Position numbers and translations under genes: made by a program. Of a DNA stretch of 64,000 nucleotides, positions 1 to 27,133 are shown one piece after another. The DNA comes from Alphaproteobacteria bacterium. Lineage in GTDB: Bacteria; Pseudomonadota; Alphaproteobacteria; JASGCL01. Where the stretch lies: the NCBI GenBank assembly GCA_965262775.1, contig CBDHFT010000006.1, positions 179,883-243,882 of the forward strand, written 5' to 3'. The notes under the pieces are model-generated. The model worked only from the letters and a program-made list of their open reading frames with translations. It was not told where the DNA came from and ran no database searches. Position 1 is the first letter of the stretch, and every line of letters starts with the position of its first letter.

Positions 1-170
1 TAGTGATGGTCTCAGTAGTTCGAATGGGGCTCCCTACCGCTATACCGTGGCCGCGGGGTCGGTGATTGTGGGTTATGGAACATTTGACGGTGGTAATGAG
101 TCGGCATATTTGCAGTCGTAGAATTGGGACATAAATCGTCGTTTCCAAAACCGAAAACCGCAGGGTAACA

Positions 171-2025
171 TTGGCGGGCGGGGTTGATGTGGTGGTGCCC
201 GTTCCCGCGGATCAAAATTTCTTCTTCACCGCCACCGATAGCGATGCCAGCAATATAATTTATTCGGTCAGCGGCACCGAAGCCGCCAATTTCACCGTGG
301 CCAGCAACGTCGATGGTATGAAGGGTAAGGGTAAATTAACATATATTGGCGATTTGGATTATGAAACCACCAGCCACACCCACACCGTGACGGTGGTGGC
401 AACGTCGGGCAATAATAGTGTAACCCAATTGTTTATATTGACAGTAACGGGTTTGAACGACGAAGCGGCGGTTTGGACCAACAGCAGTGCCAACGGCACA
501 ATTTCAGAAAATAACGTGGCGGGGGTTGCGTTGGCAACATTTACGGCCACCGACCCCGACGGCGCGGGCGTAACATATTCATTAACGGGCACCGACGCCA
601 ATTTGTTCAGTTTGGATTCCAGCGGCGGTTTGCATCTTAAATCGGCGTTGGATTATGAAGGAACATACAATGGCCACAATGGCCATGTATTCAGCGTTAT
701 TGTCAATGCGTGGGGCACCGCGGGTGGCACGGCGGGCAGCGCGGCGATTGGTTTTGGTGCCCACGGCCACGACCAAATTGTTTGTGTTAGGTTTGGGTAA
801 TATTAATGAATTCGCCACGGGTTTTGTTGGAACGTTAAGAAGTGGTGTTGCCATTAGCGAAAATAATGCGGTCGGGGTAACGGTGGCGAATTTCCGTGCA
901 ACCGATGGCGATGGGGTGACCGTGGATTATAGCGTGAGTGGCACCGACCCGAGCTACTTCAGCGTTGATACAAATGGTAATTTAAAATTAAAATCAAGTT
1001 TGGATTTTGAAGATAGTGTTCATACGGCGAAAAATTACAGCGTGACGGTGGTTGCAAAATCGACCGACGCCAGCGCGGCGATTAGCAGTGTGTTTGTGTT
1101 GAGTTTGGGTAATGTGAATGATAATGCGACAACGATTGGCGCAATGCACACCAGTGGCGCGGCGGTGGCAAAATCGGCCGCGGTGGCGGGATTATCGGTG
1201 GCGCATTTTGAATTGAACGATACAGATGGAACGGGTTTTGAATATAATGTGTGGAACTTGGCTGGTTCCACCGATGCGAATTCTTTCAGCATGGACAGTG
1301 TTGGCGGATTGCATATCAAAACCGCCCTGACAACATCAACCAAGGCATTTTATACCATGGTGGTGGGTGGCCACGGAACAAGCGGCGGCGCGGGAACGGG
1401 CGCGGCGGCTACGTGGGTATCGCAAACATTTATTTTCAGCCTGAATACCAGCGCGCAATTGGCCGACCACACGGCCTATATCGACGGCACCACGGCGACC
1501 CACGCGGTGAATGTGGGTGGCATTATTGGCCATGACGATGCAGGGAATATTGATTATGCCAATGTGCAATTCCATGGTGTTAATTATACCGATAAAGTCA
1601 TTACGCGCAATGTTGAACCCGATGGTTTGCAATTAACCACGGTGGATTATGTGGTGCGCGGGATTAGCGATTTGGAATCTTTACGCCTAAGTTTTAACGG
1701 CTTCACCGATACGGATGGTACTAAACGTAACCATTGGTTCTTCGTCCAGGATGATGCCACGGACCACAGCGGGCATATTGTGTTTGACGCCGATGGGCAG
1801 AATGTGAATTTACACGCTTTGAACAATGGCGGTGGTTTAGCAACTTCTGACCAAATTAATTTATTGGCTGGTTCAAATTACGGCATTGACGGCGATTTTA
1901 CCAAACCAACTGATTTAAATTTGAACTTGGCTTCTGACCCATTACATCAAAATACGGCGGGGGCATTGACCTTCGACCAATTCCTGGCCCTCCTCGGCGG
2001 GAATAATCACATCAGTTTTGTTTAG
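171..2025 (+). pseudogene. 3' portion of a giant cadherin-like-repeat adhesin (probable T1SS substrate), interrupted by a frameshift near 730-790 (ORFs 171..800 and 655..2025)
   Basis: Recurring ~100-aa units are present, e.g. ISENN(V/A)(A/V)GV...F.ATD.DG..V.YS(L/V)(T/S)GTD...F(S)(L/V)D..G.L.LKS.LD(Y/F)E......Y.V.V.A.S...LF(I/V)L.(V/L).G(L/V/I)N(D/E). The two ORFs are in different frames, and the repeat register continues across the junction. The C-terminus is Gly/Asp-rich, with a non-cleaved tail typical of type I secretion substrates. Confidence 0.6.
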
Positions 2026-2224
2026 GCAAAACTGCGGCCTATCTATTCCATTATTCACGGTTATAAATTTTGTGCCCCCATGGGGGTGCAAATGAATTTG
2101 CTGGCAATAAAATTTTTGCTTGCAAAATCTTTTTGCAAAAGATAGAGAAGATGAATAGAAATAAGGCTAATTATAAAAAAAGAAAAATTCTATCATAAAT
2201 AATCATGAATGGCGGGTTAAAATA

Positions 2225-4711
2225 ATGGAAAAAAATACTAACAAATCTGGCAAACAACGCACCATGCGTGCGGTCGTCATTGGTGGCGGCGTGAACGGCG
2301 TTTCGGCATTGTATCATTTGGCTAAAAAAGGTTGGAAAGATGTTTTGCTTATCGAACGTACCGAATTGACCGCGGGGTCAACATGGCATGCGGCGGGGTT
2401 GTTGCCATTATTTAACATGAGTTATTCGGTTGGCCAGTTGCATCAATATTCGGTCGAATTGTATAAACGATTGGAAAAAGAAACGGGGCAAGAAGTTGGT
2501 TTTCACCAAACGGGTAATTTGCGATTGGCGCGGGTGCGCGACCGGTTGGATGAATATAAAAATTATCAATGCACCGCCGAAACCATCGGGGTGGAATGTC
2601 ATATCCTTGGGGTTGATGAAATTAAAAAACTGTGGCCATTGGCCAACATGGATGGTTTGATTGGCGCCCTGTGGCACCCAACCGACGGGCATATTGCCCC
2701 GGTCGATGTTACCATGGCGCTGGCGAAGGGCGCACGGGCGTTGGGCGCGACCATTGAACAAAATAAAATGGTGGTGGCGATAGAACGCACCGATTCCGCC
2801 GAATGGAAAATTATAACCGAAACCAAAGATGGCGAACGCGAAGAAATTTTGTGCGAACATGTTATTTGCGCCACGGGTAATTATGCCCGCCAAACCGCGT
2901 TGATGGTTGGGTTGCAAATTCCCGCCATTCCCGTTGAACACCAATATATTGTTTACGATGTCGACCCCGTGTTAAAAAAATACCGCGAAGCGGGGAATAA
3001 AGAATTGCCCATTTTGCGCGAACCCGATGCTCAATATTATTTCCGTGAAGAACGCAATGGTTGGATTTTAGGGCCATATGAACGCAATGCCCCCGCACGA
3101 TTTGTCGACGGCGTTGACCCAGGTTTTGAAAAAGATTTGTTCCCTGGCGATTTGGACCGTTTGTTACCGCATGTCGAGGCCGTTATGCACCGCGTGCCGT
3201 CGTTAGAACATGTTGGGGTAAAAAATGTGGTGAATGGTCCCATTTCTTACACGCCCGATGGCAACCCCATGGTCGGGCCCGCCTTTGGCTTGCCCAATTT
3301 TTGGATATCGGAAGGCCATAGTTTTGGCATCACCGCCGCGGGTGGCGCGGGGTGGCAATTGGCACAATGGATTGTTGATGGTCAACCGTCGGTCGACATG
3401 ATTGGCGTTGACCCACGGCGGTTTGGTGTGGTGTCGAAAAAATTTACCAAAATTAAAAACGAAGAAGCCTACGAACATGTTTTTATTATTCATTATCCGC
3501 ACGAAGAAAAACCAAAGGGTCGCCCCGCGAAAACCATGCCCTGTTATCGCGACATGGTGGATGCTGGCGCGGTGTGGGGACAAAATTTTGGCTGGGAGCG
3601 GCCGCTGTATTTTTCAACTTCGGACGATACCAAAAAAGACGATTGGTCTTTCCGCCGCCCCAAATGGTTTAACACCGTGGGGAATGAAGTGCGCAAAATG
3701 CGCGACGAAGTGGGGTTGATGGAACTTTCAACCTTCGCCAAATATATGGTGGAGGGGCGGGGGGCGCGGGCCTTCCTCGACCATATGGTCGCCAATGCTA
3801 TTCCAAAATCGATTGGCAAACTTAATTTGTGTCACGCGCTTTACCCGACGGGTTCTATCCGCGCCGAATTCACCATTTTGCGTTTGCCCGATGGTCATTA
3901 TGGCGAACGTTTTTATGTGGTGGGGCCGTCGCGCACCCATGACATCGATTGGGATTTCTTACAAAAAAATCACCCGAAGGATGGCTCGGTTTTCTTAACC
4001 GACATGACTACCACCAACGGCGTGTTTATTTTGGCGGGGCCAAAATCGCGCGATGTGTTGCAAGAATTGGCGGACGCTGATTTGTCGAACGGGGCTTTCC
4101 CCTGGCTTTCGGGGCGCGACATACCCGTTGGGTTTTGCCCCAATGTGCGGGCGTTGCGGGTTAACTTCGTTGGTTCGTTGGGGTGGGAATTGCATCACCC
4201 GATTGAATATCAATTGCACCTGTATCGTGCAATTATGGATGCTGGCAAAAAACATAACATCGGGCTGGTCGGCATGCGCGCCATGGAATCGATGAGGTTG
4301 GAAAAAACCTATCGCCTGTTTGGCACCGACCTTAATGCTGAAAATACTATATTGGAGGCCGACCTTGGCCGTTTTGTGCGCTTGAACAAAGGAAATTTTG
4401 TGGGGCAGGAGGCTTTGGTGAAGCAACAGGCGGCGGGCGTGCCACGCAAATATGTCACGATAGAAATTGACGCGGTCGACGCCGACAGTTTTGGTAACGA
4501 ACCAGTGTTTATTGGCAACGAAGTGGTGGGCCGCGGCACGGCGGGCGGTTATGGCCATTATGTTAAAAAATCGTTGATGTTAGGTTATGTCAACACCCAA
4601 CATGCCGCGGTTGGCACCAAATGCAAAGTGCGCATATTGGGCGAATTACGCGACGCCAAAATTGTCGCCGAGAGTCCGTATGATCCCGAGAACAACGCCC
4701 TGAGGGGGTAG
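2225..4711 (+). CDS. FAD-dependent dimethylglycine/sarcosine dehydrogenase family (DAO domain + GcvT-like folate-binding C-terminus)
   Basis: 828 aa. N-terminal Rossmann motif VVIGGGVNGVSALYHL. STWHAAG matches the covalent-FAD histidine motif of DMGDH/SarDH. The C-terminal half is an aminomethyltransferase-like (GcvT) fold: GRFVRLNKGNFVGQEAL. Confidence 0.85.
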   Translation: MEKNTNKSGKQRTMRAVVIGGGVNGVSALYHLAKKGWKDVLLIERTELTAGSTWHAAGLLPLFNMSYSVGQLHQYSVELYKRLEKETGQEVGFHQTGNLRLARVRDRLDEYKNYQCTAETIGVECHILGVDEIKKLWPLANMDGLIGALWHPTDGHIAPVDVTMALAKGARALGATIEQNKMVVAIERTDSAEWKIITETKDGEREEILCEHVICATGNYARQTALMVGLQIPAIPVEHQYIVYDVDPVLKKYREAGNKELPILREPDAQYYFREERNGWILGPYERNAPARFVDGVDPGFEKDLFPGDLDRLLPHVEAVMHRVPSLEHVGVKNVVNGPISYTPDGNPMVGPAFGLPNFWISEGHSFGITAAGGAGWQLAQWIVDGQPSVDMIGVDPRRFGVVSKKFTKIKNEEAYEHVFIIHYPHEEKPKGRPAKTMPCYRDMVDAGAVWGQNFGWERPLYFSTSDDTKKDDWSFRRPKWFNTVGNEVRKMRDEVGLMELSTFAKYMVEGRGARAFLDHMVANAIPKSIGKLNLCHALYPTGSIRAEFTILRLPDGHYGERFYVVGPSRTHDIDWDFLQKNHPKDGSVFLTDMTTTNGVFILAGPKSRDVLQELADADLSNGAFPWLSGRDIPVGFCPNVRALRVNFVGSLGWELHHPIEYQLHLYRAIMDAGKKHNIGLVGMRAMESMRLEKTYRLFGTDLNAENTILEADLGRFVRLNKGNFVGQEALVKQQAAGVPRKYVTIEIDAVDADSFGNEPVFIGNEVVGRGTAGGYGHYVKKSLMLGYVNTQHAAVGTKCKVRILGELRDAKIVAESPYDPENNALRG

Positions 4712-4814
4712 GTATTTTGTGGGTGGATTTTTCGACAGAACGTAATTTGCTGTTCGCAACAGATTTGCAAACCCCCTATAAATCGCTTATTAAATAACGT
4801 GGGGCAATGGGACA

Positions 4815-7577
4815 ATGGCAAAGAAAAAAATATTAGCAGAGAAGAACACGACACCAAGTCGTAATGAAATGAAAAGCAGAGCCTTGGCATTTCAAAAAAG
4901 GTGGCAAATTGCTTCTAGTGAGTCTTCTGATAAACAAACTTTTTATAATGAATTTTTTAATATATTTGGAATTGATAGAAAAAAAGTTGCTATCTTTGAA
5001 CAGCAGGTTGAAAAATTAAACAACCGCCGTGGGTCTATAGATTTGTTTTGGCCAAAAAAACTTTTGGTGGAGCATAAATCAAAAGGCGTTGATTTGAAGA
5101 AAGCGGTTGAACAGGCTTATGATTATTGCCTTAATATTGAAAATGATTTGTTGCCTGAATTTTTGTTGGTATGTGATTTTCATGAATTTCGGTTAATAGA
5201 AATTGCTAATAAGCAAAAATATTATTTTACATTGCCAGAATTGCATGAAAAATTGCATCTATTTAATTTTATGACCGATTATAAAAAACAAAACATCGCC
5301 GAGCTTGACCCAATTAATTTAAAAGCGGCAGAACGCATGGGCGATCTTTATGATAATTTAAAAAATGATAATGCTTCACAAAAAGATTTAGAATTATTTT
5401 TGGTGCGTGTGCTTTATTGTTTGTTTGCCGATGATACAGATATATTTAAGAAAAAGATATTTCATGATTTGATTGATAAAAAAACAAGGAGTGATGGGTC
5501 AGATGTTGGCGACAGATTAGCCCATTTATTTCAAACCTTAAATACGCCAAAAGAAAAAAGACCCAGCACTTTAGATTTTGATTTAAATGACTTTGATTAT
5601 ATTAATGGTAAATTGTTTGCCGACACGATTAACATTTTATCTTTTAGCACATGGACAAGAACATATTTGATAAATTGTTGTTCGTTTGTTGAATGGCGAA
5701 AAATATCGCCCGCTATTTTTGGTTCATTGTTTCAATCAATTGCTGATAAGAAAAAAAGACGAAGCACGGGGGCGCATTATACATCGGAAAAAAATATTAA
5801 ACGCACCATTGAACCATTATTCTTAAATGACCTATGGGCAGAATTTCACAAAATAAAAAACAATACTAAACAATTACATGATTTCCATGATAAATTGGCA
5901 TCATTATATTTTTTTGACCCCGCCTGTGGTTGTGGTAATTTTTTGGTGGTGGCTTATCGTGAATTGCGAAAATTAGAATTAGAAATTTTAAAAATATTAT
6001 ATCCCGACACTGAGATAAATAAAAAAATAGATGTTAATGGTTTGTCAAAAATAGATGTAGACCATTTTTATGGGATAGAGATTGAAGAATTCCCCGCCAA
6101 TATTGCCCAAGTGGCTTTGTGGCTAACCGACCATCAAGCAAATTTAGAATTGTCAGAATATTTTGGCCAATATTACGCTAGGATACCATTAAAAAAATCG
6201 CCCAATATTACCTGTGGCAATGCCCTGACGCTGGATTGGCAAAAAATTTTATCCGCCAAACAATGTTCTTATATCATTGGCAATCCGCCATTTATTGGTG
6301 CTCGCCAAAAAGATGGCATGCAATCGAAAGAAATGGAAGATATATTTTCAGGAATAAAAGATTGGGGTAATTTGGATTATGTAACAGCATGGTATAAAAA
6401 AGCCGCCGAATATATCCATGGCACAAAAATTAAGGTGGGGTTTGTTGCCACCAATAGCATTACACAGGGTTTGCACGTTGGTATATTATGGAATAATTTA
6501 ATCAATCAACATGGTATTACCATTCATTTTGCCCATCAAACCTTTGCTTGGTCAAATGAAGCCACGGGTAAGGCGGCAGTTTATGTGGTGATAATCGGTT
6601 TTGCCAATTTTGATAGTGATAAAAAAATTCTATATGAATATGATGATATTAAGGGCGACCCAAATCAATCGCTAGTAAAATATATTAGTCCTTATTTATC
6701 TTCTAACAAAATGGATATTGCAATTAGCAGTCGTGAGAAGCCTTTATGCGATGTGCCAAAAATGTCGTTTGGTAGTATGCCCCGTGATGGTGGTTTTTTA
6801 ATTATAGAAAATGAGAAAGAAAAAGAACAATTGATAAATCATAATCCATTGGTAATAAAATATATTAAAAATTATATTGGGGCAGATGATTTTATCAATG
6901 GTTATAAAAGATATTGTTTATGGTTGGTGGATGCTGAGCCAAGTGATTTAAAAAAAATGCCCTTGGTGATGGAAAGAATAAAAAAAGTAAAAGAATTTCG
7001 GTTGGCGAGCAAAAAAACTGCAACCAGAAAATTTGCTGAAACTCCATCGTTATTTTGCGAACAACGACCCGCAAAAAGTAATTATTTATTAGTGCCACGG
7101 GTGTCATCGGAAAGGCGAAAATATATTCCCATAGGCTTTTTTAGCAAAGATAATATTGTAGCTGATAGTTGCTTAGCTATTGGCAACGCCACCCTCTACC
7201 ATTTTGGCATTTTGACTTCTGCCATGCACATGGCATGGGTAGCGCAAGTTTGTGGACGATTAAAATCAGATTTCCGTTATTCAAAAGATATTGTTTATAA
7301 CAATTTTCCATGGCCAAAGAATCCGCCCACAGACAAAATAAAAAAAATTGAATCCATCGCCCAAAGGATTTTGGATATTCGTAAAAAATATGAAAATAAA
7401 AATACCCTTGCCGATTTGTATGACCCCAATACCATGCCAAGCGATTTGTTAAAAACCCATGAGGATTTAGACAAATTGGTTGATGATTGCTACGGCTCCG
7501 CTGGTTTTGCCAGCAACGGCGATCGCCTCACCCATTTATTTAATTTGTATGAAGAATATATAAAAAATAAAAATTAA
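4815..7577 (+). CDS. MmeI-family Type IIL (IIG) restriction-modification enzyme, with endonuclease, gamma-class N6-adenine methyltransferase and target-recognition domains fused
   Basis: 920 aa, close to MmeI at 919 aa. The N-terminal nuclease D...E.K motif is intact (IDLFWPKKLLVEHKSKG). MTase motif I is FFDPACGCGNFLVVAYRELR and motif IV is IIGNPPFIGARQ. Long stretches are collinear with MmeI as I recall it (DPINLKAAERMG, ISPAIFGSLFQSI, GAHYTSE, FYGIEIEEFPANIAQVALWLTDHQ, TNSITQG, IIGF, YLLVPRVSSERRKYIPIGF, LYDPNTMPSDLLKTHEDLDKLVD). The gene is visibly more AT-rich than its flanks. Confidence 0.85.
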   Translation: MAKKKILAEKNTTPSRNEMKSRALAFQKRWQIASSESSDKQTFYNEFFNIFGIDRKKVAIFEQQVEKLNNRRGSIDLFWPKKLLVEHKSKGVDLKKAVEQAYDYCLNIENDLLPEFLLVCDFHEFRLIEIANKQKYYFTLPELHEKLHLFNFMTDYKKQNIAELDPINLKAAERMGDLYDNLKNDNASQKDLELFLVRVLYCLFADDTDIFKKKIFHDLIDKKTRSDGSDVGDRLAHLFQTLNTPKEKRPSTLDFDLNDFDYINGKLFADTINILSFSTWTRTYLINCCSFVEWRKISPAIFGSLFQSIADKKKRRSTGAHYTSEKNIKRTIEPLFLNDLWAEFHKIKNNTKQLHDFHDKLASLYFFDPACGCGNFLVVAYRELRKLELEILKILYPDTEINKKIDVNGLSKIDVDHFYGIEIEEFPANIAQVALWLTDHQANLELSEYFGQYYARIPLKKSPNITCGNALTLDWQKILSAKQCSYIIGNPPFIGARQKDGMQSKEMEDIFSGIKDWGNLDYVTAWYKKAAEYIHGTKIKVGFVATNSITQGLHVGILWNNLINQHGITIHFAHQTFAWSNEATGKAAVYVVIIGFANFDSDKKILYEYDDIKGDPNQSLVKYISPYLSSNKMDIAISSREKPLCDVPKMSFGSMPRDGGFLIIENEKEKEQLINHNPLVIKYIKNYIGADDFINGYKRYCLWLVDAEPSDLKKMPLVMERIKKVKEFRLASKKTATRKFAETPSLFCEQRPAKSNYLLVPRVSSERRKYIPIGFFSKDNIVADSCLAIGNATLYHFGILTSAMHMAWVAQVCGRLKSDFRYSKDIVYNNFPWPKNPPTDKIKKIESIAQRILDIRKKYENKNTLADLYDPNTMPSDLLKTHEDLDKLVDDCYGSAGFASNGDRLTHLFNLYEEYIKNKN

Positions 7578-7795
7578 TTGTTGCAACAATGGGGGCAAAA
7601 TTCGACCGAACTGAAATATTGTTTTTTTGCCTCCATCATAGCTTCCTCAGGACTTTTTTTATAACTAGCATGATAAACATCATCCTGCATGTGCGGGCAC
7701 CCCTCCCGATGCAATAAATGCACGCGCTGACCCGTGGAACCATCCACAAAGGTTTCCTTTTTTTCTATCATATATGCTTTGCCTAATCCTGACAT
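7574..7795 (-). CDS. Small Cys/His-rich zinc-binding protein, possibly an Ada-like metal-binding domain
   Basis: 73 aa, with HREGCPH...SPEEAMMEAKKQYFSSVEFCPHCC. The second half resembles the Ada N-terminal zinc-domain pattern S..EA..AGFRPCKRC. It converges on the MmeI-like gene and overlaps it by 4 bp. No family assignment could be made with certainty. Confidence 0.4.
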   Translation of the reverse strand: MSGLGKAYMIEKKETFVDGSTGQRVHLLHREGCPHMQDDVYHASYKKSPEEAMMEAKKQYFSSVEFCPHCCNN

Positions 7796-8009
7796 GGTTT
7801 TTTTATACCCTGGATTCTTTTATCCAGCAATATCTATTTCACCAATGACCACCATTTGTTGCCGATAGTTTTTATAGCGATAGGGCGCAACCCAAGCATA
7901 AGATAAAAACACCACGCGCGGCGCGCGCGGGCGGTTGCAATTTTTAACCAATGGGCTTATAGATACAATAATCAAATATAGCATTATTTCAATAAAATAT
8001 AGCAACATC

Positions 8010-8705
8010 ATGGCAAAGAAAAAAACCATAGCTGGAAAAAAATTGACTTCTTCCGCGCCCAAAACCAGCAACCAGGCGGGCGGCGCCATGGCGGGTTTGG
8101 CAACCCAATCGCTGTTGGTGGATATTCATTATGCAACCTTGGTGGATAGGTTTTTAAAATTTATAAAACGTTATCAACAATGGTTGGTGGCGGTGGTCGT
8201 CCTCGCCCTGGTCATAAGCTTGGCAGTGATAAGTTGGAATTTTTATCAACAATCCCAAGCAAAAAAAATAAGCGAAGAATTTTACGCCCTGCTCGGCGAT
8301 AAGGAAATTGCCACCCACCCCGATAAATTGGTGAATTTCGCCGTTAATTACAGCAAAGGTGCAGGGGCGGGTTATGGCGCATTGGCCAGCGTGATGGCTT
8401 TGCAATTAATCGAAAAAAATAAAAATGACGCCGCGCAAACCAATTTGAAAAACACCATCGATAAAGCCGTGGCGCAGAATCCCTATTTGCGCGACCTGAC
8501 GACTTTGCGTTCGGGCGATGAAAAAACATTGCGCGGCCTTACCGTGGCGGCGCAAAATTCGGCGATGATAAATTTGGCCCTGGCCGACCGCTTAACCGCC
8601 GCGGGAAAAAAAGACGAAGCAAAAAAAACCTTGCAAAATATCGCCATCAACAACCAAAATAATTTGCTTGGTTTGTTGATGTTACAAATTTTACCCAATT
8701 ATTAA
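8010..8705 (+). CDS. YfgM-like membrane-anchored TPR protein (the partner usually found upstream of bamB)
   Basis: Lys-rich N-terminus, a single TM segment (WLVAVVVLALVISLAVISW) and a TPR-like periplasmic region. It is immediately upstream of bamB, as in the yfgM-bamB pair. The ORF track start at 7935 is probably too early; the Met at 8010 (MAKKK) is more likely. Confidence 0.6.
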   Translation: MAKKKTIAGKKLTSSAPKTSNQAGGAMAGLATQSLLVDIHYATLVDRFLKFIKRYQQWLVAVVVLALVISLAVISWNFYQQSQAKKISEEFYALLGDKEIATHPDKLVNFAVNYSKGAGAGYGALASVMALQLIEKNKNDAAQTNLKNTIDKAVAQNPYLRDLTTLRSGDEKTLRGLTVAAQNSAMINLALADRLTAAGKKDEAKKTLQNIAINNQNNLLGLLMLQILPNY

Positions 8706-8732: not shown

Positions 8733-10175
8733 ATGTTGCAAAAAAAAATTTACTCCTATGTTTTTGGCGGCGCCATGGCAACATTGTTGTTAACTGGTTG
8801 CGCCGATAACAAATTGACCCTGAGCGGGCAACGGCAAGTTATCGATATTGCATCGATAGACGATGTCCGCGCCAGCGATTCAAAACTTATCGGCGGTGGC
8901 TACAGCCTAACCCAGCCAGTCACCAACCAAGAATGGCGTTCGGCGTCGGGCGGTAACGACCGTCGCCCGCCCCACGCGCGCGGCGGCGAAAAAAACAAAA
9001 TAGCTTTTTACATAAAAATTGGCGCAGGCACGGGGAAATCCACCCTCTATCCCGCGTTCGATAAAGACGGCGATGAAAACCCCGAAACCCCGCGGGGCGA
9101 GGCTAATATAGTCAACATCGCCCCCATTGTTGCCGACAATAAAATTTTCGCCATCGACAGCCGTTATCAAATCACCGTGCTCGATTGGCAAAAAGATAGC
9201 GACCAGCCCAAAGTAAAATGGCGTTATCTTTTAAGCGAAGCCAACAATTACCTTGCCGCGACGGGCGGGGGCATGGCCTTCGCCAATGCTGGCGGCCCCG
9301 ATGGCAAAACCCCTTTGTTGGTGGTGACCACGGGGTTTGGTAAAGTATACGCCTTTAACGCCAACACGGGCGATGTGGTTTTTCAACAAAATCTTATCAG
9401 CCCGATTAAAAATTCGGCGGCCATCACCGACAGCCTAGCCATTGTTAAAACCATCGACGGTTCGGTTTATGGTTTGTCATTGCGCGACGGGCGTAAGGTT
9501 TGGCAAAATAATAGTTTGCTGGCCGATGGCGGCGTGATTGATGCCATTGGGTTTAAGGGTGGATCCGCCCCCACCGCCAGCGCGGGACGGGTGTGGACGG
9601 GTTTTTTGTCGGGTAATGTGATGGCTTTGAACGGCGCGTCGGGCAATATATTATGGCAAGATGGCACGATGAAATTCAGCATAGGCGACAGCAACCGTTA
9701 TCGCGAAATTATTGGCAACATGATGCTTGACGGCGGGGTTATCTATGCCTTCAGCTTTGGTTCCGACGCCATTGCCTTCCGCGCCGATGGTGGCGGTAAA
9801 TTGTGGCGCAAACGTTTGGCGACCATCGAAAACCCGACCATGAATAACCAAACAATTTTTATTATCGACAGCGATTACAATTTGAAAGCCATTAATAAAG
9901 CGACAGGCAATTTATTTTGGAGCCGTATCCTTGAAAAATATCAATACCCTGGCACGCGAACTTTGACATTGGTCGATTGGCATGGCCCGTTGTTGGTAAG
10001 CAAAAGATTGTTTCTGGCAAATAATATAGGGCAATATATGTTCGTCAATGCCCTGAACGGCAACATGATAGAGCAGGGCCAAGATGATATATATAAACTT
10101 GACTCCCCCGCCATCGCGGCCAAAAACACCATTTTGTTTGTCAACAGCATGGGATATTTGGTGGGGATTCAATAG
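8733..10175 (+). CDS. bamB: Outer membrane protein assembly factor BamB (PQQ-like beta-propeller lipoprotein)
   Basis: The lipobox LLTGC follows a signal peptide. Repeated beta-propeller blades carry W/YG motifs. It sits downstream of the yfgM-like gene. Confidence 0.8.
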   Translation: MLQKKIYSYVFGGAMATLLLTGCADNKLTLSGQRQVIDIASIDDVRASDSKLIGGGYSLTQPVTNQEWRSASGGNDRRPPHARGGEKNKIAFYIKIGAGTGKSTLYPAFDKDGDENPETPRGEANIVNIAPIVADNKIFAIDSRYQITVLDWQKDSDQPKVKWRYLLSEANNYLAATGGGMAFANAGGPDGKTPLLVVTTGFGKVYAFNANTGDVVFQQNLISPIKNSAAITDSLAIVKTIDGSVYGLSLRDGRKVWQNNSLLADGGVIDAIGFKGGSAPTASAGRVWTGFLSGNVMALNGASGNILWQDGTMKFSIGDSNRYREIIGNMMLDGGVIYAFSFGSDAIAFRADGGGKLWRKRLATIENPTMNNQTIFIIDSDYNLKAINKATGNLFWSRILEKYQYPGTRTLTLVDWHGPLLVSKRLFLANNIGQYMFVNALNGNMIEQGQDDIYKLDSPAIAAKNTILFVNSMGYLVGIQ

Positions 10176-10803: not shown

Positions 10804-11394
10804 TTATTTCTCAATAATATAACAAGTATTCAACGCGCCAGCGCGCTCGACCCGATATTTCTTTGGTATAATTTTTTCCATATCAACCGATTGAAAACCC
10901 AAGGCGCGGGTTAAGGGATTTAACGAATGAGCCAATTTGCTTTTGCGGGTGTTAACATACAACATGATTTTGCCGCCTGGCTTCAAATGCTGCAATGCTA
11001 ATTTCAAAAAAGCATCGGGGTGCGGCAAAACGGAAATAACATGCACCAGCACAATAATATCAACTTTTTTAGTTTTTTTTAATATATCTTCGGCGTAACC
11101 AATTAAAAATTCTGGGGCATTTTTTTTCATCATATTGGGTAAATATTTTTTTACCCGCCGCTCTGCAACCTTCAACGCCAAACGGTCGGGCTCAGAAAAA
11201 ATAAATCTATTTTTATTTTTCTCACCAAGATATTTTATGTAAGGGCCCACGCCCGTGCCAATATCCAAAATAGTTAGGTCATGATTTTTTCTGGTAAAAT
11301 CTGCAAAATGTTCATAGCTGCTTTTTTGCCACAACCCCCAGGTAAAAGAATAAACGGGGCGCCATAAAGTCCAAACATTAAAACCAAATATCAT
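10804..11394 (-). CDS. Class I SAM-dependent methyltransferase
   Basis: Motif I is ILDIGTGVGPY. A later segment LKPGGKIML is typical of the Rossmann-fold MTase family. Confidence 0.7.
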   Translation of the reverse strand: MIFGFNVWTLWRPVYSFTWGLWQKSSYEHFADFTRKNHDLTILDIGTGVGPYIKYLGEKNKNRFIFSEPDRLALKVAERRVKKYLPNMMKKNAPEFLIGYAEDILKKTKKVDIIVLVHVISVLPHPDAFLKLALQHLKPGGKIMLYVNTRKSKLAHSLNPLTRALGFQSVDMEKIIPKKYRVERAGALNTCYIIEK

Positions 11395-11519: not shown

Positions 11520-11596
<77 letters not shown>

Positions 11597-17306: not shown

Positions 17307-18839
17307 TTACAGTTGCGTCGCGGGCAACTTGATAGGATAACGTTTGCGCAATTCAACATCCAAGGCTGGGTCAATGAAGGAATGCGGCGGCATGGCAAGA
17401 ATTTTTTCTTTGATGGCGCGCGCCTTTTCCAAAGCGGTTGGCTTGTTATTGGCTTCCCATTCTTTGGGTGATGAGCGGTCAAAGGTTTTGGGATAAAAAT
17501 AATCCTTTTGCATAACGCGTAAAGTTTGGTCGGCCCCCAAGAAATGCCCTGGGCCGTCGATGCAAACCGAACGGATGGTGTCTAAACTCAATAATTCTTC
17601 GGTGACCTCTATGCCACGAATGATACGGCTGGTCGAACCCAAAACATCATTGTCCAATATCAAACTTTCCAAGCAGAACCCGAGCAAACTGGCGTGCATG
17701 CCCGCCGATTCGTAAACCAAATTAGCCCCCGATTGCGCCACAATGGCGTGGTTATAGGCCTTTTCTGCGCCAGCCTGGTAATCAGGAATTTTTGAATCGG
17801 CCATGCCCGAAGCAACGGCGTTGATAAGCCCAAGATGCCTGCCAATTTCTGCTACGCCAGCCATCAACAATGATTGTTCGGCCGAACCGCCGCTCATGGC
17901 GCCCGTGCGCAGGTCGCTAACAAATGGCCAAGCACCAAACATGGCGGGTGCCCCTGGCTTCACGGCGTTAACATAAAATAATCCCGCCAAAACTTCGGCG
18001 GCGGATAGGGTTACCGAGCCCACCAAGGTGGCGGGGCTGGTCGCACCCGCCTGGCCCGCTGATATTAATAAAATAGGCATGCCTTCCAACGCGGCGCGTT
18101 CCAAGCAACGGCAGGCATCTTGCGCAAATTTTAATGGCGGCACCACAAAGCAACAGGATTGCGACACGAAAGGACGCGCCAGCCATTGTTCTTTGCCACC
18201 CGCAATTTCATGCAACATGGCCAAGGATAAATCAAAATGTTTGGTATCAACCCACGAAGTGCCAACATGTTTGCGCGAACCGCGCACCGAGGCATAGCAG
18301 GTGTTAAAATCCATATCCAATGGGTCGGGCAAGTCACGTGGCACCAACGAGCGTTGATAAAAATGGATGTTATCCATGTGGTCGCAGATTTTGGATGAAT
18401 GATAAAGATCTTCCAACACCGATTCGCGATATTCGTTGGTTAGGGCGTCGACCATATGCACCGCGGCACCCGCCGTGCCGTAATAAACGCGGTCATCGTA
18501 GGGGTCTAAATCCCATTCGGGGTCCAAGCCAAATAATGTAAATTTTTTATTGGCAACGGCAAGCATATCCAGCACCGCATTTTTGGGGAAACAAAGACGG
18601 TTATTTTTAACAACCGCGCCTATTTTTTGGCAATATTCTATGGTCGAGGGTAAGGCCTCGGCAAAGCCGATATTTTCCAATATGTTTAGAGCGCTTTCGA
18701 CAATTTTTGATCTTTCTTCGGCGGTAAATAATTTTAAACGCCCCGATTTCATGCCACGCCAAATGGGTTGCAGGTCGGTTTGTAAGGGGGCTTGTCTTGC
18801 GGCAACGCGCGATGCGCGGCCGCCCATTCTTAGTGACAT
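17307..18839 (-). CDS. MttB-superfamily methyltransferase without pyrrolysine (glycine-betaine/quaternary-amine:corrinoid methyltransferase-like, MtgB-type)
   Basis: 510-aa uninterrupted ORF with a TIM-barrel MttB fold. A long collinear region (ILENIGF...HMVDAL...SGGSAEQSLLMAGVAEIGRHLGL...YESAGMHASLLG) is typical of trimethylamine-methyltransferase-family proteins. There is no in-frame amber codon. Confidence 0.75.
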   Translation of the reverse strand: MSLRMGGRASRVAARQAPLQTDLQPIWRGMKSGRLKLFTAEERSKIVESALNILENIGFAEALPSTIEYCQKIGAVVKNNRLCFPKNAVLDMLAVANKKFTLFGLDPEWDLDPYDDRVYYGTAGAAVHMVDALTNEYRESVLEDLYHSSKICDHMDNIHFYQRSLVPRDLPDPLDMDFNTCYASVRGSRKHVGTSWVDTKHFDLSLAMLHEIAGGKEQWLARPFVSQSCCFVVPPLKFAQDACRCLERAALEGMPILLISAGQAGATSPATLVGSVTLSAAEVLAGLFYVNAVKPGAPAMFGAWPFVSDLRTGAMSGGSAEQSLLMAGVAEIGRHLGLINAVASGMADSKIPDYQAGAEKAYNHAIVAQSGANLVYESAGMHASLLGFCLESLILDNDVLGSTSRIIRGIEVTEELLSLDTIRSVCIDGPGHFLGADQTLRVMQKDYFYPKTFDRSSPKEWEANNKPTALEKARAIKEKILAMPPHSFIDPALDVELRKRYPIKLPATQL

Positions 18840-26659: not shown

Positions 26660-27045
26660 AAAAAGAAGGGTTTCTGTTGCTGGGAAACCCTTCAAGACCC
26701 CACCTATCGGGTATGAGCCGACAGGAATTCTGAGATGCACTCTTAAGCCACTCTAGGCAGCAAGAGCAACACCCCTTTCATTGTCATTGGCATTTATAGC
26801 CTTTGAAGCTCTCTTAACCCCTTTATTATAAATAATATCAAGGCGGCGAACTTAATACCGAACGCAAATCATAACCTTTATCACGCCTGTCTAGCCTGTT
26901 TCACCCCCATAATTTTACCCTGTCACTTTGATTTTTTAAGTAAGCCCACAAGTTTTTTTTATGGTGGAGGTGCCGAGTACTGCCCTCGGGTCCAGAACGT
27001 CTATGCCGTTTGATTTGATAGCGTCATAGTCCTGCCAAAGCAGAA
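26660..27045 (-). ncRNA. ssrA: Two-piece (circularly permuted) tmRNA gene ssrA: acceptor piece, spacer, then coding piece encoding tag ANDNERGVALAA
   Basis: Read on the minus strand. The acceptor piece ends ...CUCGGCACCUCCACCA (CCA at plus 26963-26965). The coding piece begins GGGGGUGAAACAGGCUAGACAGG (plus 26908 downward), compare E. coli GGGGCUGAUUCUGGAUUCGACGGG. GGGGGUG pairs with CACCUCC, giving a G3-U70 alanine identity pair. The tag reading frame is GCC AAU GAC AAU GAA AGG GGU GUU GCU CUU GCU GCC UAG, giving ANDNERGVALAA (plus 26753-26791). A 9-bp stem plus U-tract terminator lies at 26664-26691. Upstream promoter is TTGACA-17-TATATC. There is no ORF of 60 aa or longer in this 480-bp gap. 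Confidence 0.85.
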
Positions 27046-27053
27046 CAATATAT

Positions 27054-27082
27054 GATATACTACGCCATGAAAAAAATGTCAA
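27054..27082 (-). promoter_or_regulatory. Sigma70-type promoter of ssrA (TTGACA, 17-bp spacer, TATATC) on the minus strand
   Basis: The minus strand reads TTGACAtttttttcatggcgtagTATATCatatattg. -35 lies at plus 27077-27082. Confidence 0.5.
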
Positions 27083-27133
27083 TCTGCGCCCCATAACCAC
27101 TTCGCCGCTTAACCAGCCTGTTTATCATCAACC

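Follow-up and report, generated by a model that had tools for sequence, protein, structure and literature searches.

The closest described relatives of the gene considered here are the single-chain restriction-modification enzymes of the MmeI family, for which both a mechanism and a code connecting residues of the recognition domain with bases of the site have been published (PMC4833311, PMC2731914). Those who described the family took aligned PD-(D/E)xK catalytic residues as their criterion (PMC2731913); in MmeI itself, mutation of any one of D70, E80 and K82 abolishes cleavage, and a helical spacer sets the reach of the nuclease at roughly 20 nt (PMC4833311). Exchange of recognition domains was predicted for the family from two Microcystis paralogues (Morgan and Luyten, PMC2731914), and allelic diversity has been described in Type IIG genes of Campylobacter and Streptococcus thermophilus (Furuta et al., PMC2853133). 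Here we examine a family member encoded in a 64,000-nt stretch of alphaproteobacterial DNA (contig CBDHFT010000006.1 of assembly GCA_965262775.1, positions 179,883 to 243,882), referred to below as the window. The open reading frame (ORF) in question belongs to the MmeI family with a confidence close to certainty and, judging from its sequence, is likely to encode an apparently functional Type IIL enzyme; the same explanation, held at the same strength, includes the repeated replacement of its methylase and recognition part by homologous recombination with divergent family members.

The assignment to the family rests on the entire length of the protein. The five MmeI domains of Pfam occur collinearly (E-values 1e-93 to 9e-23, all well over the gathering score; Table 1), residues 15-914 align to residues 4-901 of MmeI from PDB 5HR4 (phmmer, E=4e-281, 938 bits) with 49.4% identity over aligned columns, and the PADLOC model REase_MTase_IIG is covered from 4 to 911 of its 912 positions with a score of 1175 bits. 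The nuclease motif D76-x9-E86-x-K88 (nt 5040-5078) is intact and aligned with D70/E80/K82 of MmeI, and equivalents of these three residues are kept in 122 of 122 aligned family members. Methylase motif I, FFDPACGCGNFL, occupies residues 366-377 (nt 5910-5945) and motif IV, NPPF, residues 490-493 (nt 6282-6293). The two positions that contact the partner thymine are L816, equal to the conserved L805 of MmeI, and V763, where MmeI has T752; valine is also found at the latter position in the active enzyme CstMI. The initial annotation had recognized a full-length, intact single-chain enzyme carrying these motifs, and the domain order and end-to-end match bear this out, as does the fact that the frame stays open across 13 A-runs of at least 7 nt (two of them A8) and one T7 run. 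Judged by gene content only, none of the neighbours is a DNA methylase or HsdS-like gene, and within the window there is neither a second copy of the enzyme gene nor a silent recognition-domain cassette. A homology search returned at least 8000 relatives at E<=1e-50, and the family was found in 274 plasmid records and 7 phage records, so numerous that the enzyme is an ordinary addition to a very large, well-characterised family.

The history of the gene can be read by comparison with three other contigs that cover the same junction. These are L001 (OZ241918.1), which is the closest genome, an alphaproteobacterial metagenome-assembled genome with a 1.63-Mb chromosome whose BamB shares 98% identity with the window's BamB; L002, a 6.2-kb contig; and L007, a 2.2-kb contig. 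Sliding nucleotide identity of the window to L001 and L002 is 95-100% from the end of the upstream dehydrogenase gene through position 5777. Between ~5800 and ~6280 the window is only 71-77% identical to both relatives, which are 99-100% identical to each other; from ~6280 to ~6668 the window resembles L001 (synonymous divergence, dS, of 0.11) and it is L002 that differs; from ~6669 to 7210 identity is 45-79% in all three pairwise comparisons, all three alleles being different; and 3' of ~7210 it returns to 88-95%. At the protein level, the strains are 97-100% identical in the nuclease and spacer domains and 38-67% identical in the TRD-N part of the target recognition domain (TRD). In every tract that distinguishes two alleles, the dS between them is saturated (1.18-1.35); it is ~0.08 over the 5' third of the gene and 0.20-0.23 in bamB, yfgM and a downstream transporter gene. 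Since dS is saturated there, the differing tracts were imported from divergent family members rather than mutated in place, and we conclude with high confidence that recombination has made the gene a mosaic. Purifying selection acts on the nuclease and spacer segment, which has a nonsynonymous divergence (dN) of 0.008-0.016, a dS of ~0.08 and dN/dS of ~0.1-0.2 between strains. The interval 3978-5777, running from the last part of the dehydrogenase gene across the first third of the enzyme gene, is more alike between strains than are the housekeeping flanks, which suggests a recent recombination tract or a sweep across strains at this locus.

According to the published code (PMC2731914, PMC4833311), residues 723/737/738 of MmeI determine position 1 of the site, 642/645 position 2, 751/773 position 3, 774/810 position 4 and 806/808 position 6, position 5 being the methylated adenine. 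The corresponding residues of the enzyme were mapped to MmeI numbering through the alignment and interpreted following Morgan and Luyten (PMC2731914) and Callahan et al. (PMC4833311). K734/C748/E749 predict C at position 1, a base that accompanies Glu at 738 when residue 723 is Lys or Arg; F652/M655 predict A at position 2, in line with the preference for A brought about by the K645M change in MmeI; R762/D784, a basic residue with Asp, predict G at position 3; S785/R821, Arg with a small residue, predict R (purine) at position 4; and K817/D819, the KxD pattern, predict G at position 6 (PMC2731914, PMC4833311). As a positive control, CstMI, extracted from plasmid pTP10, reads A.Q/FM/KD/LR/KD and thus AAGGAG, its experimentally determined site. 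The enzyme is therefore predicted, with somewhat better than even confidence, to recognise 5'-CAGRAG-3'. The same site, CAGRAG(21/19), is listed for SdeAI (PMC2731913, Table 1), and the commonest code among the 120 nearest homologues, R.E/FM/RD/SR/KD, is equivalent to that of the enzyme; with this specificity already known and common, the site is probably not new. In this respect our analysis departs from the initial annotation, which considered the specificity unpredictable and possibly new: the published code covers every variable position of the site and reproduces the control, and in the comparison of TRD specificity residues that the annotation itself had proposed, all five residue pairs match combinations of the code.

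The three alleles carry three different predicted specificities. In the same notation the window allele reads KCE/FM/RD/SR/KD, the L002 allele NCS/FM/SN/LR/KD with the predicted site ?ACGAG, and the L001 allele SHI/TK/VV/DR/KD with the predicted site (G)C?GAG, probably GC?GAG. K/D at position 6 and R821, both just 3' of the variable tract, are common to all three. The combinations V/V (site position 3, in L001) and N/S (position 1, in L002) lie outside the published code, and these two alleles may recognise new sites; the code of L001 is identical to that of two unrelated database proteins, P0053 and P0061. In L001 the loss of one nucleotide outside any long homopolymer (window equivalent 3988) splits the dehydrogenase gene, the MmeI homologue is frameshifted, and other single-base indels of this genome are not systematically located in homopolymers; its broken genes reflect either gene decay in the strain or assembly errors.

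By analogy with MmeI, the recognition domain, reading the major groove, and the methylase would together clamp an asymmetric 6-bp site and flip out its penultimate adenine. With S-adenosylmethionine bound, this adenine of the top strand would be methylated, on one strand only, and the host DNA thereby protected. On unmodified DNA with at least two sites, two bound molecules would pair their N-terminal PD-(D/E)xK domains, cooperation being required because each nuclease domain has a single active site, and the flexibly tethered nuclease would cut at an expected distance of ~20/18 to 21/19 nt downstream. The recognition event behind methylation would also license cleavage. Since one domain would serve both activities, a new recognition module should change restriction and protection together, so that swaps would be tolerated, and sister strains could come to carry different specificities through repeated replacement of the central part of the gene.

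In base composition the enzyme gene is clearly set apart from its surroundings, as the initial annotation had noted. Sliding-window G+C content (GC) is 0.31-0.38 over 4750-7750, while the upstream gene has ~0.50 and the downstream part 0.45-0.52, and the low-GC stretch extends beyond the enzyme ORF to ~8000, including the minus-strand gene discussed below. The GC of 0.337 and the GC at third codon positions (GC3) of 0.293 are the lowest among the 48 window ORFs of at least 150 aa, whose means are 0.469 (standard deviation 0.033) and 0.509 (0.051), respectively, corresponding to z-scores of ~-3.9 and ~-4.3; the codon-usage distance is 1.10, versus 0.47-0.72 in the other five genes over 600 aa. 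Homologues with ~55% identity in two unrelated hosts likewise have a GC of 0.35-0.36 against flanks of 0.47-0.55. One of them is part of an islet (L012, 1970-7916; GC 0.36 in the same range of flanks) in which an integrase, an unknown gene and AbiEii precede the MmeI-like gene. A foreign, low-GC origin of the enzyme gene is the best reading of this composition, with the direction and timing of transfer judged from sequence.

The locus is nonetheless old on the scale of these strains. The order dehydrogenase, MmeI-like gene, 73-aa minus-strand gene, yfgM, bamB is common to L001, L002 and L007, with a nucleotide identity to the window of 92-100% for the enzyme gene, the small gene and the two junctions. 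As housekeeping genes differ at a dS of ~0.2, the acquisition predates the strain split, and the gene is a long-standing resident of the lineage at one locus rather than a recent private island. In the outgroup L009 (YfgM 47% identical), synteny downstream is kept through enolase, but yfgM follows directly on rsfS-rlmH and both the enzyme gene and the small gene are missing, which places the enzyme gene at a synteny breakpoint. The annotated horizontal acquisition thus stands as regards foreign origin, the acquisition being an older one; similarly, its insertion between the neighbouring genes agrees with the breakpoint and the composition, whereas the gene occupies the same place in all three (3/3) relatives and no empty site was found in genome-contig, metagenome and YfgM-homology searches. 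A scan of genome contigs with BamB found only L003 (identical to L001) and a 23%-identical match without upstream DNA; a metagenome scan with the dehydrogenase found one contig, 78% identical and followed by other genes; in L006 the dehydrogenase has 85% nucleotide identity and both of its neighbours differ from those of the window. By YfgM homology the clade is isolated, the next relatives being 46-50% identical, and the region upstream of their yfgM consists of rsfS-rlmH (L009 and L010) or ends with the contig (L008). The non-coding intervals 4712-4814 and 7578-8009 revealed no boundary when compared with the regions upstream of outgroup yfgM, with homologue flanks and with each other (z<1.5). 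L008 (YfgM 46% identical) has two N6_N4_Mtase genes and a 413-aa unknown ORF at 3420-6246, just downstream of yfgM, bamB and an outer membrane protein gene, a different restriction-modification-like insertion in the same neighbourhood.

The 5' end of the enzyme gene has been remodelled. More than 90% of 122 family sequences begin with M-[A/P]-L-S-W-N-E-I; the enzyme has T12-T13-P14-S-R-N-E-M19 at the corresponding place (window 4848-4871), with ACG replacing the ancestral ATG. Initiation at 4815 adds 11 residues, and initiation at M19 (position 4869), the start used in the source annotation and in the relatives, yields a protein of 902 aa and removes the conserved SxNE, a truncation of 7 residues. 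A 412-kb contig in NCBI and ENA that matches the window's proteins carries exactly this 902-aa form. An exact 16-nt direct repeat, ATGGCAAAGAAAAAAA, coincides with the enzyme's first ATG and recurs where the YfgM-like gene begins; these are its only exact copies in the 64 kb, and they are conserved in L001 and L002. The repeat is the exact core of a 32-nt family (D1) with 78% identity and a spacing of 3195. Because outgroup YfgM-like proteins likewise begin with MAKKK, the yfgM copy is native, and the 3195-bp unit that the repeat brackets holds the enzyme gene and the small gene together with a spacer. Conjecturally, the repeat may have been left by an insertion that duplicated its target and fused genes, by analogy with cases catalogued in PMC2853133.

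The small gene that converges on the enzyme gene encodes a 73-aa protein with two CPH motifs (CPH...CPHCC) and is called in L001, L002 and L007. Relative to L001 it has 8 synonymous and 2 nonsynonymous codon changes, compared with 0-3 synonymous changes in the other five frames, which on this count of codons indicates purifying selection. A homology search found no homologue of the protein beyond its own cluster, and there was no Pfam, PADLOC or significant PHROG match; no counterpart exists beside other MmeI homologues, elsewhere in the window or in the outgroup. Its single-sequence AlphaFold model is of low confidence (mean pLDDT, the predicted local distance difference test, 52.7). In L012 a called 67-aa minus-strand ORF, unrelated to the 73-aa protein, overlaps the 3' end of the MmeI-like gene. 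It might be imagined that the two genes of the window form a module in which the 73-aa protein, or antisense transcription that the small gene imposes on the 3' end of the enzyme gene, controls the enzyme and, with the swappable tract and the A8 run, provides a strain-level switch of specificity and activity, although we rate this as improbable. To our knowledge, no dedicated controller of single-chain MmeI-type enzymes has been described.

Several points weigh against the picture of a functional enzyme directed at CAGRAG and have to be considered together with the alternatives that they feed. Position 1 is the weakest call of the prediction, since covariation there is 'not simple' and MmeI resisted engineering at this position (PMC2731914, PMC4833311). 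The small Ser at the 774 position argues for R at site position 4, where G alone would also be possible, and CAGRAG occurs 22 times in the window against an expectation of 17.2 +/- 3.9, neither depleted nor enriched and hence uninformative. With the family N-terminus altered and its ATG lost, it is uncertain where translation truly starts and whether the nuclease domain is intact at its extreme N-terminus, and the change from A8 to A9 in L001 may mean that this allele is inactive or the assembly wrong. The enzyme may instead recognise another and possibly new site, with residues outside the code positions modulating recognition, an alternative that we consider distinctly less probable than the predicted site. 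The authors of the code report noisy correlations and an influence of non-contact residues, especially at position 1 (PMC2731914); the enzyme has K/C/E at 723/737/738, where most homologues have R/G/E, and its recognition domain is only ~60% identical to the nearest relatives outside the clade. On the other hand, all five residue pairs are in combinations explicitly tied to a base, Lys and Arg at 723 are described as interchangeable for C:G (PMC2731914, PMC4833311), and CstMI was predicted correctly at every position. It is, in our judgement, unlikely that the gene is a domesticated or decaying copy that still methylates, as an orphan methylase with a possible regulatory epigenetic role, and whose nuclease is impaired by the remodelled N-terminus. 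Such a fate would be in keeping with the loss of the canonical start, the replacement of conserved N-terminal L by P, W by R and I by M, the frameshifted allele of L001 and the long retention at one locus without mobility genes; however, the catalytic triad is as intact as in every other family member compared, strong purifying selection on the nuclease and spacer would be unexpected if only the methylase mattered, and repeated import of recognition modules would be expected if the gene serves defence and is under pressure to diversify.

We give very little weight to the explanation that the apparent alleles are artefacts of metagenome assembly, arising from sequencing error or from a chimeric consensus of strains that occur together. 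All the sequences are derived from metagenomes, L001 and L002 from the same sample, the coverage of L002 is only ~3x, and single-base indels break two genes in L001. Nevertheless, the variable tracts keep an open frame and family-typical residues despite saturated dS, the block boundaries are sharp and differ between pairs, L001 is a circular 1.63-Mb chromosome at 67x coverage, and its module code recurs in independent database proteins. Equally remote is a recently acquired horizontal island private to this genome. The strong deviation in GC, GC3 and codon usage and the absence of the gene from the corresponding junction of L009 would fit such an island, and the direct repeat bracketing the 3195-bp unit recalls the insertion of restriction-modification genes with duplication of the target, mobility genes being absent (PMC2853133). 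Against it stands the presence of the locus in L001, L002 and L007, separated from the window by the housekeeping divergence given above, with no empty site found. What might mark a mobile island amounts here to the 16-nt repeat: no integrase or transposase is adjacent to the enzyme gene, and the nearest tRNA, at 11520, is 3.9 kb off. The repeatedly recombined, long-resident enzyme gene is thus the explanation that we favour.

The flanking genes are those given by the initial annotation, a dehydrogenase upstream and a YfgM-like gene followed by bamB downstream, all of host-like composition (Table 1). A terminator-like hairpin stands isolated in the AT-rich spacer that separates the small gene from yfgM. 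At 171-2025, ahead of the dehydrogenase gene, lies a gene for a cadherin-domain repeat protein, the L001 version of which (1-7158) is giant (>3078 aa); the window version aligns at only 67-80% to several L001 repeat units, and this is a variable surface-protein gene adjoining the locus. A class I S-adenosylmethionine methyltransferase gene with a GC of 0.379, the second-lowest of the window, lies at 10804-11394 (minus strand) and partially matches PADLOC 'mad2' (54.7 bits); it keeps the same position in L009 and is truncated to 109 aa in L001. Further away, the Rfam family PYLIS_3, the pyrrolysine insertion sequence of mttB, matches 17705-17804 (minus strand, 42.8 bits) inside ORF 17307-18839, which encodes an uninterrupted 510-aa MttB-family protein; the match probably reflects sequence similarity rather than pyrrolysine decoding. 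An alphaproteobacterial permuted two-piece transfer-messenger RNA with the tag peptide ANDNERGVALAA is located at 26662-27086 (minus strand), which speaks for the window being alphaproteobacterial.

Table 1. Coordinates of features at and around the MmeI-family gene (positions in the window)
Feature	Coordinates	Residues	Strand	Basis or remark
Dimethylglycine/sarcosine dehydrogenase-type gene, upstream flank	2225..4711		+	Pfam DAO+FAO_M+GCV_T+GCV_T_C; host-like GC 0.506
MmeI-family Type IIL restriction-modification gene	4815..7577		+	uninterrupted ORF, ATG start, 920 aa
Direct repeat ATGGCAAAGAAAAAAA, left copy	4815..4830		+	exact 16 nt at first ATG of enzyme ORF
PD-(D/E)xK nuclease domain (MmeI_N)	4878..5366	22-184	+	Pfam; catalytic D76, E86, K88
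Helical spacer (MmeI_hel)	5385..5618	191-268	+	Pfam
Mosaic recombination tract	5800..7210	~329-799	+	sliding identity, dS
Gamma-class N6-adenine methyltransferase domain (MmeI_Mtase)	5847..6635	345-607	+	Pfam E=1.3e-93
Target recognition domain (MmeI_TRD)	6714..7319	634-835	+	Pfam E=3.9e-79
C-terminal helical bundle (MmeI_C)	7335..7565	841-917	+	Pfam E=6.4e-27
A8 run	7340..7347		+	A9 in L001: frameshift, C-terminal domain cut off
Conserved orphan gene, 73 aa, Cys/His-rich	7574..7795		-	convergent; overlaps enzyme stop codon by 4 nt
GC-rich hairpin followed by T-run, terminator-like	7912..7930		-	consensus scan: 8 pairs, 7 G-C
YfgM-like TPR_21 gene, downstream flank	8010..8705		+	Pfam; host-like composition
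Direct repeat ATGGCAAAGAAAAAAA, right copy	8010..8025		+	start of YfgM-like gene; native copy
bamB, downstream flank	8733..10175		+	host-like composition

Taken alone, the enzyme adds little, as its family is very large and known and its site is probably known as well. What extends beyond the initial annotation is the mosaic allelic nature of the gene, its remodelled 5' end and the convergent small gene. Three recognition modules placed in one gene in three near-isogenic backgrounds constitute a natural test set for the MmeI code, two of them holding residue combinations that go beyond it, and exchange of recognition domains is exemplified in an uncultured, streamlined alphaproteobacterium. 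The locus also illustrates that strong compositional deviance need not mean recent acquisition.

Among known systems, the most distant to be compared are PglX of BREX and DrmMI of DISARM, in which a distantly related gamma-class methylase is combined with a recognition module (weak matches); the enzyme, unlike these, carries a nuclease domain. Identity with BREX PglX was considered and rejected, as the scores are 18.4-20.3 bits against NCBIfam cut-offs of 500 and 900 and no BREX genes are found among the neighbours; no BREX or DISARM partner genes are present near the enzyme gene. MmeI of Methylophilus methylotrophus (PDB 5HR4, TCCRAC 20/18) is much closer, with the same five domains, nuclease triad and methylase motifs. 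Its R810 is retained, the only specificity residue shared: the enzyme has K/E, F/M, R/D, S and K/D where MmeI has A/Y, Y/K, E/N, A and E/R, and it is on account of these different pairs that the predicted site is CAGRAG rather than TCCRAC. The enzyme also differs from MmeI in its N-terminus, remodelled by the 11-residue extension or the 7-residue truncation. SdeAI of Sulfurimonas denitrificans is a characterised member of the family whose published site equals the one predicted here, and, from the reading of the code, the enzyme is a putative isoschizomer of SdeAI. CstMI, carried by plasmid pTP10 of Corynebacterium striatum (AAGGAG 20/18), shares F/M, the basic residue with Asp, K/D and the V at 752; it differs in A/Q at position 1 (base A), in L at 774 (G only) and in being plasmid-borne. 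With respect to its evolution, the locus resembles the allelic or paralogous exchange of recognition domains seen with Type IIG/IIL enzymes in Microcystis (IPF4888 and IPF5080), Campylobacter jejuni and Streptococcus thermophilus, where near-identical genes occupying a conserved locus likewise show sharp divergence only in the recognition region. Unlike in those cases, the replaced tract spans much of the methylase domain, in at least three independent blocks, and the host is an uncultured alphaproteobacterium with a small genome (1.6 Mb); the exchange of recognition modules described here is a known phenomenon in a new host.

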